DNA from: an uncultured Acidimicrobiaceae bacterium
GTDB lineage: Bacteria > Actinomycetota > Acidimicrobiia > Acidimicrobiales > RAAP-2
Assembly (NCBI GenBank): GCA_963777485.1
Contig: CAVZQP010000002.1
Span: 1,006,030 to 1,070,029 of the forward strand
Direction of reading: 5' to 3'
DNA length: 64,000 bases
This document shows positions 17,765-27,826 of the stretch, in pieces. The translations under genes were made by a program, and so were the position numbers. Below the pieces are notes generated by a model, which searched no databases, was not told the DNA's origin, and worked only from the letters and a program-made list of their open reading frames with translations. Position 1 is the stretch's first letter, and each line of letters opens with the position of its first letter.

Positions 17765-19195
17765 GTGCGCCGACGGGGTTCAAGAGGAGAGGCGAAAACA
17801 GCGAATTGGCGCCGCGGGAGGCCGCGCTCGGCCGTCTCGCTGGCGGCGATCACCGTCGCGGCGCTCGTCGCACCGGCGGTGCTCACGTTCGGTGGCGGCA
17901 GCCTCGCGCCGGCGCCGGCCGGTGCCGTCTACCACGACGCCGGAATGATCGGGTTCGGGAACGTCGACACGAGCGCGCCCGCCATGCCGCAGCCGCTCAA
18001 CTCGCCCGTGTTCTCCGGGACCGCCACGCCCGACGGGAACGGCTACATCCTCGCCAGCGCAGACGGTGGCGTCTTCGCGTTCGGCGACGCGACGTTCGAA
18101 GGCTCCGCGGGTGCCCTGCCCCTACAGGGTCCGATCGTGGCCGAGGCCACCACGCACGACGCCAAGGGGTACTGGCTCGGCGCGCTCGACGGCGGCGTCT
18201 TCGCATACGGCGACGCGCAGTTCTACGGATCGATGGGCGGGCAGCGTCTGAACCAGCCGATCGTGGGCATGGCAGCCACGCCCGACGGCAAGGGCTACTG
18301 GCTCGTGGCCGCCGACGGCGGGATCTTCTCCTATGGCGACGCGCAGTTCTACGGCAGCACGGGTGCCATCACCCTGAACTCGCCGATCGTCGGCATGGCG
18401 GCGACGCGAGACGGCAATGGCTACTGGCTGGTCGCGGCGGACGGGGGCATCTTCAACTACGGCGACGCGCTCTTCGAGGGCTCGGCCGGCAACGCGAACC
18501 TGCCCGACCCCGCCGTCGGCATGGTGGCGTCGCCCGACGGTGCGGGCTACCTGATCGCGACCCAGAACGGCGTCGTGCTGCCCTACGGCGACGCGCAGGG
18601 CCTCGGGGGCCTCAGCCTCGACCCGACGGCGACGCAGATCTCCGCCATCATCGGCAACAACCACGGCACCGGCTACTGGCTCCTCGACCCGCAAGCCTGG
18701 CAGTACAGCTTCACGACCGCGACGCCCGAACCCGCATTCCCCGGGTCGGCCACTGTCGCGGCGGCGGTGGCGAGCCAGATCGAGCCGGATCCGGACACCC
18801 AGGGGGCGTATTGCAACCCGTACGGGCCGTGTGAGGAGTGGTGCGCGCTGTTCGCCACCTGGGCCTGGGAGCAGGCCGGCATCGGCATTCCCCGCTATGC
18901 GTTCACCGGCGACATGTACGGCTGGTCCGCTGCCCACGGTGCCGTCCTGCCGCCGACCGCGATGCCCGCCGTCGGTGACGCGGTGCTCTACGGCACGGGG
19001 CCGCAGAGCACGTCCACCTCGGTGCACGTGGGCATCGTGACCCAGGTCTGGCCCGACGACGCGATCATGACCGTGGGCGGCGACTCGGGACCGGGCCGCG
19101 ACGGGTACCTGTCGGTCGCGCTCGACGGCCCCTTCCTGCCGCTGGACTCGGGCAGTTACAACGGCACGCCGATCTACGCCTTCGCCCAGCCGTAG
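17765..19195 (+). CDS. Secreted cell-wall hydrolase: six ~40-aa propeller-type repeats plus a C-terminal CHAP (amidase/peptidase) domain
   Basis: Signal peptide ...[30 protein letters not shown]. Six repeats follow the pattern [22 protein letters not shown]. The C-terminal CHAP-like region is ...[18 protein letters not shown]...VHVGIVT.... Confidence 0.75.
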
Positions 19196-19243: not shown

Positions 19244-19465
19244 GTGCCCGTCTACGACTACCGCTGCTCGACCTGTCGCGCCGTCTTCGACGAGCGGCGG
19301 GCCATGGCCGACGCCGATGCGCCGGCCACCTGTCCCGACGGCCACGTCGGGGCGCGCCGCCTGCTTCCCGTGTTCGCCACCACCGGCCGCGCCACCGAGC
19401 CCGCCGCGGCGATGTGCGGTGCACCCGTCGCCGGCGGTTGCGGCGCCGGCTGCGCCTGCTGCTGA
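19244..19465 (+). CDS. FmdB-family zinc-ribbon putative regulatory protein
   Basis: (M)PVYDYRCSTCRAVFDE...CPDGH... with a Cys/Gly-rich tail GGCGAGCACC. GTG start. Confidence 0.8.
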   Translation: MPVYDYRCSTCRAVFDERRAMADADAPATCPDGHVGARRLLPVFATTGRATEPAAAMCGAPVAGGCGAGCACC

Positions 19466-19472
19466 GGCCGAC

Positions 19473-20576
19473 ATGTCACTCAGCTCGTGGGACGACTACC
19501 CGGTCCACCAGGCGTCGGAGTTCATTGCCCACCCAGCGACGAGCGATCGCAACTTCTACGACCGTTACTACTTCAACATGCACCCGTGCGACGACGACTG
19601 GTTTGCCATCTTCGGGATGGGCCAGTACCCGAACCTCGGTGTCGTCGACGCGTTCATCGACGTGCGGCTCGGAGGCTCCCAGCACATTGTGCGGTCCTCG
19701 GCGCCCCTGCGGGACCGGGGCGACATTTCCGTCGGGCCGTTCCGGATCGAGGTGCTCGAGCCGCTGCGCAAACTGCGGGTGATCGTCGAGCCGACCGAGG
19801 ACCGCGTGGCGATGGACGTCACCTGGGAGGGCCACATCCCCGCGGTCGAGGAGCCCCGCCAGTACCTGCGCTCCAAGGGCAAGGTCGTGTTCGACACCCA
19901 GCGCCTGGCCCAGACGGGCTTCTGGTCGGGGACGTTGTCGGCCGGGGGCAACGACCTGGCGGTGACGCCCGACCGCTGCTGGGGCACCCGTGACCGCTCG
20001 TGGGGGGTGCGCCCAGTCGGCGAGCCCGAGAGCGACGGCATCCGCCAGGGCGAGCACGTGCTGAGCGGGATGTGGAACTACTTCCCGATGCAATTCGACG
20101 ACCACGCCATCATGTACATCTGCCACGAGCGCGACGACGGGGAGCGCCCGCTCGTCCAGTCCGAGCGGGTGTGGGCCGACCCCTCGAAGGGCATTGAGGA
20201 CCTGGGCCGTTCGGAGCACGAACACCACCTGATCCCCGGCACCCGCATCATCGACCACTCGGTGCTGCGCTTCCCCGAAGCCGGGATCGAGATCGCCTGC
20301 CGGCCCATCCTGCCCAACTTCGTCTCCGTCGGCACCGGGTACGGCATCGACGCCGACTGGCGCCACGGGATGTACCACGGGCCCGAGACCGTCACCCAGG
20401 GCCTCGTCCTGTCGGTCGAAGAGATCAAGGGCATCGCCCAGTACGGCATCGTCGACAACGTCGCCGAGTTCTCCTACGACGGCAAGGTCGGTTACGGCCT
20501 GCTCGAGCACGCCTTCATCGGCCCGTACCGGCGCTACGGCCTGACGGACGGGGCCATGGGAGCACCCGGGGCGTAG
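19473..20576 (+). CDS. Conserved hypothetical protein (possible AttH/CrtC-like lipocalin-fold protein)
   Basis: 367 aa starting MSLSSWDDYPVHQ.... It contains WGTRDRSWG, a motif I associate with AttH/hydroxyneurosporene-synthase-like families. The function call is weak. Confidence 0.6.
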   Translation: MSLSSWDDYPVHQASEFIAHPATSDRNFYDRYYFNMHPCDDDWFAIFGMGQYPNLGVVDAFIDVRLGGSQHIVRSSAPLRDRGDISVGPFRIEVLEPLRKLRVIVEPTEDRVAMDVTWEGHIPAVEEPRQYLRSKGKVVFDTQRLAQTGFWSGTLSAGGNDLAVTPDRCWGTRDRSWGVRPVGEPESDGIRQGEHVLSGMWNYFPMQFDDHAIMYICHERDDGERPLVQSERVWADPSKGIEDLGRSEHEHHLIPGTRIIDHSVLRFPEAGIEIACRPILPNFVSVGTGYGIDADWRHGMYHGPETVTQGLVLSVEEIKGIAQYGIVDNVAEFSYDGKVGYGLLEHAFIGPYRRYGLTDGAMGAPGA

Positions 20577-24216: not shown

Positions 24217-27200
24217 TTACCAGCCCGTAGCGGCGATGATCGAACCGTTGAGCGCGGTACCGAGCATGGAGCCGTCGTTCGGCGCGTTGCCATAGTTGAC
24301 GACGGCACCGTCGGCCGAGGCCACCCAGTACCCGCCTCCGTCGGCCGTCGTGAAGATCGCGGTGGCGGGGTTGAAACCGCCCATCTGACCGGCCGGGCTC
24401 CCGAAGTTGGCGGCATCGCCGTAGTCGTCGATGGCCCCGTTGGCGAAGAGGACCCAGTACCCGTTTCCGTCAGGGGTGCGCACTGCGGACGTGACCGGCG
24501 AGCCTTGAGGTCCGGGGGCCCCGTAGTACGGGGCGTCACCGAACGTGTAGACGTGGCCGCTCTGGGTCACGAGCCAGTAGCCGTTGCCGCTGGCGTCAGG
24601 CATCACCGCCACGGCCGCACCGGTGCAGCCGCCGATCCCCGGGCAGCTGCCGGCGAAGCGGGCATCGCCGAAGGCGAAGACGCCGCCGTCGGAGGCGACC
24701 ATGAAGTACCCGCGGCCGTCCGCGGACGGCACCATGCCCACAATGGGTGCGTTGAGCGAATTGGGCAACCCCGAGCCGGCTGGGTGGAGCCCGAGCCCGG
24801 GGATCGATCCGTAGAAGCCCGCGTCACCGAAGGCGAAGATCCCTCCGTCCGACGCGTCGAGCCAGTACCCGCCGCGGTCGGCGGTCGGCACGATGCCCAC
24901 GACAGGCCGCTGCAGTCGCAACGAGCCCGTCGAGCCGTAGAACTGGGCCGAGCCGAACGTGAAGATCCCGCCGTCGGAGCCGACCAGCCAGTAGCCGTGG
25001 GTCGGTTGCGGAGGCGGCGGTGGCGGATCGTTGACCACGAGGGTCGTCGTCCCAGACGAGCCTGAGAACAACGGTGTTGCCGGCATACGTTCCGGTGATC
25101 GTGTCGGTGCCGACCGGCGCCGCCGAGGATGTGCAGGAAACGGTGCCGTTCGAGAACGTCACTGTGCAGAGTGGTGTCGATCCTGCCGAGAACGTGAACG
25201 AGCCGCTCGGAGTGGGCACTCCCGGTGGCGGTTGTGGACACCGTTGCCGAGTAGGTGACCGTGGCACCTTGTGTCACGGAAGCGGGGGTCGCGCCGATCG
25301 ACGTCTGTGACGGTGCTTTGTTGACGACGAGTGGCGTCATCCCGGTCGAACCGACGAACACGGAGTCGCCTGTGTACGTCGCCGAGATCGTGTCGGTCCC
25401 GACCGGAGCGAGCGAGGAAGTGCAGGAACCGGAAGCACCGGTTCCCGCACTTGACAACTGCGCGGTGCAGAGTGTCGATCCCGTGGAGAACGTGACCGAC
25501 CCCGTGGGGTTAGATAATCCCGTGACACTCGTCGTCACCGTCGCCGAGTAGGTGACCGAGGTTCCAATGGTCACCGGGCTGGGGCTCGTCGATCGTCGTC
25601 TGTGACGGCTCTTCGACGACGAGGCTCGTCGTCCCGGTCGACCCCGTGAAATTGGTGTCACCGGAATAGGCGCCCGAAATCGTGTCGGTCCCGACCGGGG
25701 CGGCAGCAGTGGAGCTGCACGAACCGCTGCCGTTTGACACAATGTCGGCAGTGCAAAGCGACGTCGATCCTGCCGTGAACGTGACCGACCCAGTCGGAGT
25801 GGGCAATCCCTGGAACGCTCGTCGTCACCGTCGTCGAGTAGGTGACCGAGGATCCCAGCGCCACCGGGCTCGGGGTCGCGCCGATCGAGGTCTGTGTCGA
25901 TGCGGGGTTCACGATGAGGCCCGTCGTCATGTTGGACCCCGAGAACAGGCTGTCGCCGGAGTAGGCACCCGAAATCGTGTCGGTTCCGGCCGGGGCGCAG
26001 CGGTGGAACTGCACGAACCACTGCCGTTCGAGATCAACGTCGCCGTGCACAGCGAGGTTGATCCCGTGGTGAACGTAACCGTCCCAGTCGGGGTGGGAAA
26101 CCCTGAGACGCTGGTCGTGACGGTCGTCGAGTAGGTGACCGAGGATCCCAGCGTCACCGTGCTCGGGCTCACGTCGATCGAGGTCTGCGATGGTGCTTTG
26201 TTGACGACAAGTGGCGCGGTCCCTGTCGAGTGCCCGAAGACGGAGTCGCTCGAGTACGTTCCCGTAATCGTGTCCATACCGGCCGGAGCGGCAGAAGTAC
26301 TACAACTACCGGTGCCGTTCGTCAGCGGCGCCGTGCAGAGCGTGGTCGCACCTGTCGTGAACGTGACCGAGCCGGTCGGGGTGGGCAAACCTGTGACGAC
26401 GCTCGTCACAGTCGCCGCGTAGGTGACCGAGGAACCGAACGTCACCGGGCTGGGGCTCGCGCTAACCGCTGTCTGTGACGCTTCTTCGACGACCAGCGTG
26501 GTCGTGCCGGTTGAAGCCGACAACCCGCTCCGCCCGAATATGTGCCGAAAACAAGGTCGGTGCCGAACGGGGCGGCGGAGGAGCTGCACGAACCGTTGCC
26601 GCTCGACAGTGTCGCGGTACACAGCGGCGTCGACCCCGTCGAGAACGTGACCGAACCGCTCGGGGTTCCACCGGTCACCGTTGCCGAGTAGGTGACCGAC
26701 GATACCCAAGGTCCGACCGGGTTCTGGGCGCTCGCAGTGACCATGGTCCCTGTCGAAGGTTGGCCGTACGTCACGTTGAGGTCGGAAGCGCCCGGGATCG
26801 TCGGAAAGGCAAAGTGGTTGTCTGTGACCCATTCACCATTCGGATGAGCGTCGGCGTGTTACCCGTCGGATTGGATGTCGTGTAGTCGAGATTGGTGAAG
26901 TTCGCGGTGCCGAAGTTCGCGAGTGGCGGCTGACTCGGCTTCTCCGAAGTCATCTCCTCGATCCATTCGGCCGAGTTCGCGGGTTGGCCGTCTGTACCGC
27001 GTCCGCCGTACGGGAAGGAGTTGGTGAAGCTATGGCCCAATGTGTGGTCGGTGATAGAGATGGTCCAAGTTCCCTGCGTCGTAGACGTAGGTGGCGAGAC
27101 CTGGAAGATGTCGGCGGTCATGTGATCGCCGGGATTGACGCCGAAAATATCGGGACTCTCGGCATTCGGGAGGATCTCCCACCAGGCGTCGTAGCTCGCA

Positions 27201-27709
27201 ACCCCCCCTGAAAGGTCCTGTTCGGTGCCGGCCTGAATGAGGTCATGGTTGCTGAACCCGTCGATGCCGATCCACGACGACGACACCGCCGGGACGGAGG
27301 CGACTGGATCGTAGGCACAGTCCACGAGGCGCTGACGCCTGTGTAGGTCGCACCGATCTGCGCCAGCCCGGCCCAGTTGCCGGACGAGCACGTTGGCGGC
27401 TTGCTCGCCCGACAGGTATGGGTTCTGGGCCATCAGCCCGGGGACCCGATGGTCGTAGGTGGGCTGGAGCCCAGTGGTAGTGGGGTGACCCGATACCGAC
27501 CGGGACGTCGGCGCGGCTTGTTCTGCCGGTTGGGCGTGCGACGGCACCGGGACGCTCTGGGCGGCCTGTACTGCTCGTTGGCCGTGCGCCGACGTCGGGA
27601 TGCCCTCGCCAGCCCCGACCGCGGTCGTCCCCCCCAGGAGCACCCCACCCGTGACCAGGACCGCGACCACGAGTTGGCGCGCTGCCTGCCTAACTCTGAT
27701 CAAGTGCAA
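24217..27709 (-). pseudogene. Mosaic surface protein (signal peptide, G1/eqolisin glutamic peptidase, 6 Ig-like repeats, poly-Pro, 6-blade GYWL propeller), readable only across about 9 frame breaks
   Basis: Minus-strand ORFs 26771..27709, 26442..26774, 25927..26832, 25658..26050, 25510..25806, 24603..26021, 24824..25267 and 24217..25086 each carry consecutive pieces of one repeat protein in different frames. See findings for break coordinates. Confidence 0.6.
25035..26775 (-). repeat. Six tandem ~290-bp coding repeats (Ig-like, Big_3_5-type: ..VTYSATVT...PTGSVTFxxGSTxLCTAxL..GSGSCSS.AAPxGTDTIxGxYSGDSxF.GSTG..LVV)
   Basis: The repeat units are read from the translated minus-strand ORF fragments. 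Confidence 0.7.
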
Positions 27710-27826
27710 TCTCCCCCAGATCCCACCGCCTCACCGCCAAATCGTAACCAGCGCCCCCTCAGTTATCGGCGCGTCGGGCGGCCGACCCTTAATCTCCTGT
27801 TCGGACAAAGGATCGGGTCGCAAATT

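Follow-up and report, generated by a model that had tools for sequence, protein, structure and literature searches.

We investigated a stretch of 64,000 nucleotides (hereafter the window) from an uncultured Acidimicrobiaceae bacterium, in which the gene at 17765..19195, the focal gene of this work, encodes a putatively exported protein with a repeat of 42 residues and a CHAP peptidoglycan hydrolase domain. By structure prediction, the repeat is the blade of a six-bladed β-propeller, and the same module recurs on other exported proteins of this genome and on phage endolysins. We propose, with a probability of about two in three, that the propeller has no catalytic role and serves to keep exported proteins attached to the envelope of Acidimicrobiia and related Actinomycetota. 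The strongest evidence for wall targeting in this analysis is the architecture of the endolysins, and the module is best read as a domain family that is new but whose type of function, non-catalytic envelope targeting, is known.

A closed six-bladed propeller is predicted

The initial annotation had described six consecutive repeats of no named family in the focal protein, followed by a CHAP domain, and had suggested a β-propeller. The Gly-Tyr units of the protein, which start at amino acids (aa) 93, 135, 177, 219, 261 and 303, indeed follow an exact period of 42 aa, so that the count of six stands, but only five of the units are complete, and the sixth is made up from both ends of the module. 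The CHAP assignment was borne out by a match of Pfam PF05257 to aa 358-438 (E 1.4e-7, 32.4 bits against a cut-off of 26) and by the catalytic pair Cys360 and His421, which is invariant in 25 orthologues. The protein thus consists of a signal-like leader, the propeller at aa 58-310, a linker of ~45 residues and the CHAP domain.

Structures were predicted with AlphaFold 2 (AF2) in two runs. The first covered the whole focal protein with 25 orthologues, and the second was confined to the module (aa 56-314), for which the 46 paralogous modules found in this genome were aligned. The first run yielded a predicted local distance difference test score (pLDDT) of ~80-93 at aa 60-310, with an unusable CHAP part, and the second run afforded a closed six-bladed propeller with a pLDDT of 91.5 and a predicted template modelling score of 0.90. 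This model is a closed ring of radial antiparallel sheets, in which five complete blades contain three DSSP strands each, and blade 6 combines the last two strands (ISAII and GYWLL) with the N-terminal strand (MIGFG) in a classic velcro closure. The velcro strand is supplied by GMIGFGNV at aa 60-67, of which G60, M61, F64 and G65 are invariant among the orthologues. Furthermore, Foldseek searches against the PDB and BFVD returned hundreds of propellers at probability 1.0, in agreement with the fold first suggested. The top matches were generic seven-bladed WD40 proteins (E ~1e-10, template modelling (TM) score ~0.6, root-mean-square deviation (rmsd) 5-8 Å, 10-15% identity), and no close solved relative of the module was retrieved from either database.

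The view that the repeat belongs to no named family also held. Pfam gave no match to the repeat, the leftovers being noise both in the focal protein (DUF5818 and DUF4859) and in the second propeller protein of the window described below (LGFP 0.0075, RCC1_2 0.0086, and L24e), and NCBIfam likewise gave nothing. A phmmer search of all PDB sequences yielded zero matches at E up to 10, and a profile of the whole module retrieved 8 PDB sequences at the same limit, all of them marginal, with UTP4 (0.0033), the HERC2 RCC1-like domain (RLD; 0.0069) and the GyrA C-terminal domain (0.015) as the best. Literature searches with motif strings of the repeat found nothing.

Phage endolysins carry the blades in the wall-binding position

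Relatives of the module are encoded on 66 viral contigs in IMG/VR. Among 59 viral carrier open reading frames (ORFs), Pfam detected Amidase_2 in 37 and GH25 in 3, and no other known wall-binding domain in any, and the blades were always found at the extreme C-terminus, as a non-catalytic part behind the catalytic domain. Since these proteins carry no other wall-binding domain, the repeat holds the position of one, and judged by domain order the architecture is that of a Gram-positive endolysin. Comparison with PHROGs also identified the sampled viral carriers as endolysins, with the match limited to the N-terminal part and with tail and helicase genes nearby. The wall-targeting role that the initial annotation had considered is therefore backed by phage endolysins in which the repeat is the only non-catalytic part, whereas wall binding itself and the nature of the ligand are inferred. 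Literature searches for a propeller-type wall-binding domain of endolysins found no described case.

Most of the viral loci have a guanine plus cytosine (G+C) content of 60-71%, compared with 68% for the host genome. Eleven viral contigs have only 41-49% G+C (L049, L053-L059, L079, L083 and L084), most of them with three-blade lysins, which suggests that they infect hosts other than the high-GC Acidimicrobiales, perhaps freshwater Actinomycetota of low G+C content. INPHARED contained a single matching record, MK557849, in which a protein of 1304 aa (L045; MK557849.1 42901-46815) adjoins a minor tail protein and carries two six-blade modules. Its label 'glycoside hydrolase family 25' was not supported by any Pfam or PHROG match at the thresholds used, and a tail-associated role in receptor binding or lysis is possible. 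Two IMG/VR proteins of 1025 and 1067 aa (L048 and L050), with 12 consecutive blades and no PHROG match, are probably double propellers of unknown role.

The module is shared by many putatively exported proteins of the genome

A blade hidden Markov model (HMM) was built from the two propeller proteins of the window and searched against the stop-to-stop ORFs of the 4.05-Mb Acidimicrobiales genome. As a result, 46 ORFs with 5-7 detected blades were obtained. An improved HMM found six blades in 41 of them and five in the other 5, and the five-blade scores correspond to split-blade architectures, that of the focal protein among them. The module is placed at the extreme C-terminus in 34 of the 46 ORFs, and in the other 12 it is N-terminal and followed by an enzyme; in the peptidoglycan-acting enzymes, the propeller is N-terminal. 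A simple hydrophobicity rule, which is only heuristic, called a signal-like N-terminus (basic, then hydrophobic) in 38 of the 46 paralogues, and the focal leader has a Kyte-Doolittle maximum of 2.47 with 4 K/R upstream and an AF2 helix at aa 29-39.

When the paralogues were scanned with Pfam, the result agreed with the earlier proposal that the module is fused to varied cell-surface enzymes. The partners that act on peptidoglycan include CHAP (the focal protein), NlpC/P60, PG_binding_1 with YkuD (L,D-transpeptidase), SpoIID, Polysacc_deac_1 and three DUF459/SGNH proteins of the SGNH esterase type, and those that act on glycans are two GH43 and one GH26. Other enzyme partners are an arylsulfotransferase with TIG, a sedolisin prodomain with TIG, and Peptidase_A4 (the broken gene of the window), and surface-type arrays are represented by TIG arrays of 5 and 14 repeats, He_PIG with BNR, NIDO, Beta_helix and Big_3_5.

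The blades within one protein can be nearly identical, with mean identities of up to 86-90% and single pairs of 100%, compared with a mean of 53% between proteins. The blades are 83-90% identical on average in the proteins at C2:63227-64783, C2:1305867-1307939 and C2:52564-60024, and 76% identical in that at C2:909299-911389. Such near-identity indicates recent amplification, gene conversion or concerted evolution within genes, and both concerted evolution and blade amplification are known for other propeller families (PMC9218822).

The focal gene is conserved and syntenic

Many Acidimicrobiales metagenome bins contain orthologues of the focal protein, at 59-89% identity (mostly 67-89%), and where these orthologues bear a name it is only 'CHAP domain-containing protein'. 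The gene is syntenic in 7 related genomes, flanked by aconitase on one side and by an unknown ORF and argS on the other, and its identity across these genomes (70-92%) is similar to that of the aconitase and argS neighbours. This synteny and neighbour-like conservation fit a housekeeping function.

The ORF directly downstream of the focal gene (window 19317-20576, + strand) encodes 419 aa of unknown function, and is found at the same position in 7 of the 7 syntenic genomes with 81-96% identity. Matches of PF23795 (SH3_YKFC_2nd) in some of the focal orthologues were rejected as spurious, since they are partial matches of 20 residues with 24-29 bits at a cut-off of 27.4.

Blade numbers point to a ring of six

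We then compared the number of blades among viral and cellular proteins. The 62 complete viral ORFs carry 1 blade (3 ORFs), 2 blades (24), 3 blades (29), 6 blades (4) or 12 blades (2), and forms with 4, 5 or 7-11 blades are absent among them; one of the three single-blade ORFs, L110, has about two blades by eye. The pattern holds after clustering at 50% identity, which gave 20 clusters, distributed 3/4/10/2/1 over 1/2/3/6/12 blades. One catalytic PHROG (12609) was seen in combination with 6, 3 and 2 blades, and one single-blade module is common to two catalytic domains, Amidase_2 and a metallopeptidase-like domain recognised from an HxH motif. In all viral forms, the first element is strand 1 and the last is the fourth segment of a blade; they are unpermuted, unlike the cellular velcro forms. 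Blade 1 of the two-blade forms is closest to blade 1 of the three-blade forms (60-62% versus 40-45% identity) and the C-terminal tails of both correspond, so that one internal blade makes the difference between the two forms.

Among the 150 best global representatives, six blades were counted in 138 of 164 modules, 12 in four and 18 in one, and the remaining modules scored 4, 5, 7, 8 or 11 blades, partly owing to detection effects. Two of these representatives, P0142 and P0248, score eight contiguous blades over ~340 aa, which may reflect genuine variants with eight blades or result from the way split blades are counted.

Since the viral blade numbers are divisors or multiples of six, we infer that six blades close the ring, and that the phage domains would complete it by self-association, as hexamers of the one-blade form, trimers of the two-blade form and dimers of the three-blade form. 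Engineered WD40 fragments and Pizza2 do assemble into closed oligomeric propellers (PMC6805158, PMC7337062), and the lectin RSL is a trimeric six-bladed propeller (PMC11883740), although natural propellers are 'almost always' single chains (PMC6805158). The broader proposal of a natural, abundant family with chains of 1, 2, 3, 6, 12 and 18 blades, in which the short phage forms assemble into the six-blade ring of the cellular proteins, is a tentative one, for which the odds appear slightly unfavourable.

Proposed function of the propeller

On these grounds, we propose the following mechanism. The focal protein would be exported and its propeller would dock on a wall component, after which Cys360 and His421 of the CHAP domain would cut peptidoglycan in the vicinity, either in the stem peptides or at the amide bond, so that the protein may serve as a conserved housekeeping autolysin. 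The same propeller would act as a general wall anchor that retains or targets the ~46 exoproteins of this genome, and phages of Acidimicrobiia would have taken it over to serve as the wall-binding domain of endolysins and to aim the amidases. The ligand of the propeller is probably a cell-wall glycan, and a secondary wall polymer is a more likely candidate than peptidoglycan, since one paralogue already has a PG_binding_1 domain.

Several points weigh against this proposal. About half of the paralogues have no Pfam match outside the module, so that the list of partners is incomplete, and the PG_binding_1 domain beside the propeller in the one paralogue suggests that peptidoglycan may not be the ligand. 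No solved relative with a ligand site was found. The IMG/VR contigs may contain misbinned cellular DNA, although the sampled loci had endolysin, tail and helicase neighbours. The blade HMM misses divergent or split blades and gives scores of 5, 7 and 8 in some cellular proteins, and the viral sequences are related to one another, so that a '(4/6)^n' argument from their blade numbers overstates their independence.

We considered three other explanations, none of which accounts for the phage data as well as wall anchoring. First, the propeller may be a WD40-like platform for protein interaction or regulation, which recruits the CHAP domain to a divisome or secretion partner or masks its active site. 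The WD40 scaffolds among the top Foldseek matches, the position of the propeller ahead of the catalytic domain in the peptidoglycan hydrolases, and the separate PG_binding_1 domain of one paralogue would agree with such a role. However, the WD40 matches are generic by their TM and rmsd values, the module is also carried by glycosidases, proteases, Ig-like arrays and 40 of the 59 phage lysins, whose catalytic domains are unrelated, and one common protein partner for all of these is unlikely, and the endolysins, acting on the wall from within, need to recognise the wall. We thus consider a protein platform improbable.

Second, and in our view just as improbable, the module may be a lectin or carbohydrate-binding module for foreign glycans (plant, fungal or competitor walls), with the focal CHAP protein as a secreted weapon or scavenging enzyme. 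This would be in line with the fusions to GH43, GH26, an arylsulfotransferase and a sedolisin-type protease, with the large secreted repertoire typical of soil saprophytes, and with the closest functional analogues, the six-bladed lectins, which bind fucose or other sugars (PMC6631993, PMC11883740). Phage endolysins, however, must bind the wall of the host lineage that produces them, and the L,D-transpeptidase and SpoIID partners have the wall of the cell itself as their substrate; moreover, the focal gene is single-copy, syntenic and conserved in the manner of its housekeeping neighbours.

Third, and least probable of all, each blade may be an independent binding repeat of the choline-binding or LysM-like type, with ring closure irrelevant and the 1/2/3/6 pattern due to sampling or ancestry: variation of repeat number is common in wall-binding repeats, the viral sequences form only ~20 clusters at 50% identity and some cellular modules score 5, 7 or 8 blades, but the predicted ring of the cellular proteins is closed with strand exchange between the termini, exactly six blades were counted in 138 of the 164 modules of the global representatives, with larger ones of 12 or 18, and four- or five-blade forms are missing from the complete viral ORFs.

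Distribution among bacteria

A scan of one genome per species yielded more than 590 matching stretches. The best 80 of these were all labelled Acidimicrobiales, Acidimicrobiaceae, Acidimicrobiia or, more loosely, Actinomycetota/Actinomycetes, and all were from metagenome-assembled genomes except for the isolate Acidithrix ferrooxidans. In an even sample of the phylum, 14 of 301 genomes were positive for the module, with large expansions in a few, and another uncultured family of Actinomycetota has one or two copies. When the module profile was searched against 1.84 billion cluster representatives, there were 21,370 matches with E values no higher than 1e-3 and 11,691 with E values no higher than 1e-30, which corresponds to ~21,000 clusters at 50% identity worldwide. 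Together with the 46 ORFs of the genome, these numbers place the repeat well above chance.

The two copies examined from that other uncultured family, L192:1153-2496 (- strand) and L193:783-1967 (+ strand), encode six divergent blades after a domain with the motifs SxHxxGxAxD and HxDHxH, which by eye reads like a LAS/M15-type metallopeptidase (peptidoglycan peptidase). A relative on a contig labelled Cytophagales (Bacteroidota; L206, DMST01000142.1) could be due to transfer, a phage or a binning error.

A second, broken propeller gene in the window

The features of the two propeller genes in the window are summarised in Table 1. A broken gene with six of the repeats at the C-terminus, a G1 peptidase and Ig-like repeats had been recognised in the initial annotation, and this description was upheld. 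The Peptidase_A4 domain, the Big_3_5 repeats and the six blades of the gene (24217-27730, - strand) are spread over at least four reading frames, and the gene is therefore broken. Its PF16640 matches fall in the ORFs 25927-26832, 25658-26299 and 24603-26033, and the protein of the ORF 24217..25086 contains six GY-motif units. This second module begins at strand 2 (GYWLV...) and finishes with strand 1 (GSIIAATGW). Homologues of the broken gene in relatives share only 38-51% identity, and some of them (42-45%) have intact frames of 683-948 aa; the gene may be a pseudogene or the result of indel errors of the long-read assembly. Two more six-blade genes, at C1:784243-785827 and C1:1150990-1152569, also appear to be broken, with overlapping ORFs of 3+3 and 2+2+3 blades, so that at least 3 of the ~49 module genes are frameshifted in this assembly.

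Table 1. Positions of the features of the two propeller genes in the window.
Feature	Position	Strand	Basis
Whole focal gene, putatively exported six-blade propeller and CHAP peptidoglycan hydrolase	17765..19195	+	GTG start, ORF of 476 aa
Putative signal peptide or signal anchor	17765..17929	+	Basic N-terminus, hydrophobic aa ~27-45, then Ala/Pro/Gly
N-terminal strand GMIGFGNV..., predicted to complete blade 6 (velcro closure)	17936..17980	+	Strand E61-64 in the full model, E6-10 in the domain model
Blade 1, aa 80-121	18002..18127	+	Periodicity, blade HMM, AF2
Blade 2, aa 122-163	18128..18253	+	Periodicity, blade HMM, AF2
Blade 3, aa 164-205	18254..18379	+	Periodicity, blade HMM, AF2
Blade 4, aa 206-247	18380..18505	+	Periodicity, blade HMM, AF2
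Blade 5, aa 248-289, more divergent	18506..18631	+	Periodicity, blade HMM, AF2
C-terminal two strands of blade 6, aa 290-310	18632..18694	+	E294-297 and E304-307 in the full model, E239-242 and E248-252 in the domain model
CHAP core, aa 358-438, catalytic Cys360 and His421	18836..19078	+	Pfam PF05257
Second six-blade module, extreme C-terminus of the frameshifted multidomain gene	24220..25005	-	Periodicity, blade HMM
Big_3_5 Ig-like repeats of the broken gene, over three frames	24603..26832	-	Pfam PF16640
Peptidase_A4 (G1 glutamic peptidase) domain of the broken gene	26771..27730	-	Pfam PF01828, E 6.4e-25

Significance

A domain of ~21,000 clusters with neither a Pfam or NCBIfam model nor a solved structure is an annotation gap. 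The module marks ~1% of the genes in some soil Acidimicrobiia, and a model for it would annotate a large share of the exoproteome in a major, poorly cultured lineage of soil and freshwater. If the propeller is a general wall anchor, its ligand would define an unknown feature of the Acidimicrobiia envelope, fluorescent propeller fusions could be used to label or capture Acidimicrobiia cells, and the domain would be a new fold among the wall-binding domains of endolysins, the first of the propeller type. If the short forms assemble into rings, the lysins would be multivalent, with two to six catalytic heads per ring, and the 1/2/3/6/12 series would offer a natural test bed for the evolution of repeat proteins through oligomeric intermediates, as living evidence for a route of amplification via oligomers that has so far been shown mainly with engineered fragments.

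Comparison with known domain families

In its position, the module resembles the wall-binding domains SH3b, LysM, PG_binding_1, CW_binding_1, CW_7, SLH, LGFP and CWB2, which phage lysins also carry on the C-terminal side of Amidase_2 or GH25, and it resembles the SLH and CWB2 families in that one non-catalytic module is common to many exoproteins of one organism. No model of these known wall-binding domains matches the module, and to our knowledge none of the eight is a β-propeller. WD40 domains share with the module a blade of ~40 aa and the top Foldseek matches, but they have seven blades and are mostly cytoplasmic scaffolds; the module has six blades without the GH/WD motif, and no WD40 family of Pfam was matched at E up to 1.

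Propellers of the RCC1/BLIP-II type (Pfam RCC1, PF00415, and RCC1_2, PF13540; BLIP-II of Streptomyces exfoliatus), like the module, are secreted bacterial propellers with short blades. The motif layout is alike, with a hydrophobic strand, a turn, a strand ending in DG, a strand ending in (W/F)G and a Gly-rich loop ('IVGMA..GYWLVASDGGVFxFGDAxFxGS' in the module, 'VxIAAGxxHSLALxxDGxVxAWGxNxxGQLG' in RCC1), and BLIP-II resembles the module in having three DSSP strands per blade. Weak matches of the RCC1 type also recur, namely RCC1_2 at 0.0086, the HERC2 RCC1-like domain at 0.0069, and WD40_RLD at 0.0003 in 2 of the 59 viral carriers. However, the RCC1_2 match reaches 16.3 bits against a cut-off of 22 and covers 12 residues only, the RCC1 HMM (PF00415) has 0 matches in the whole genome, while it detects genuine RCC1 repeats of 50 residues in 16 of the 121 other actinobacterial genomes, and the module has six blades of 42 aa instead of seven of ~50 aa. 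BLIP-II and RCC1 were also absent from the Foldseek top 50. We compared the module by hhalign, at the levels of the blade and the domain, with genuine actinobacterial RCC1 propellers. The blade profile gave a probability of 4% against 61 actinobacterial RCC1 blades, and the whole module gave 0.6% against seven-blade RCC1 domains (E 0.089 over 140 columns, compared with E 0.98 for the reversed control), in a register that is consistent over three consecutive blades and places DGGVFxFG on DGxVxAWG. Since these alignments are not significant and blade number and length differ, homology to RCC1/BLIP-II was not established and the module is not filed as RCC1; a very remote relation is possible.

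The six-bladed fucose lectins RSL (Ralstonia solanacearum), BambL and AAL/FleA share with the module a ring of six blades, which in these lectins is formed by one six-blade chain or by a trimer of two-blade chains and binds glycans (PMC11883740, PMC6631993, PMC9764287). By analogy, they offer the best mechanistic parallel to the two-blade forms of the phages. Unlike the module, RSL, BambL and AAL/FleA are free-standing, without fusion to wall enzymes; the fucose lectins were not among the 8 PDB sequences retrieved with the module profile at E up to 10, and no lectin family of Pfam was matched.

The fragments of WRAP/PkwA, Pizza2/Pizza3 and tachylectin-2 are similar to the short phage forms in that 2-5 blades build closed propellers, and the Pizza2 trimer has the six-blade architecture of Pizza6 (PMC6805158, PMC7337062). 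These fragments are laboratory constructs, whereas those of the phages are natural, abundant and under selection.

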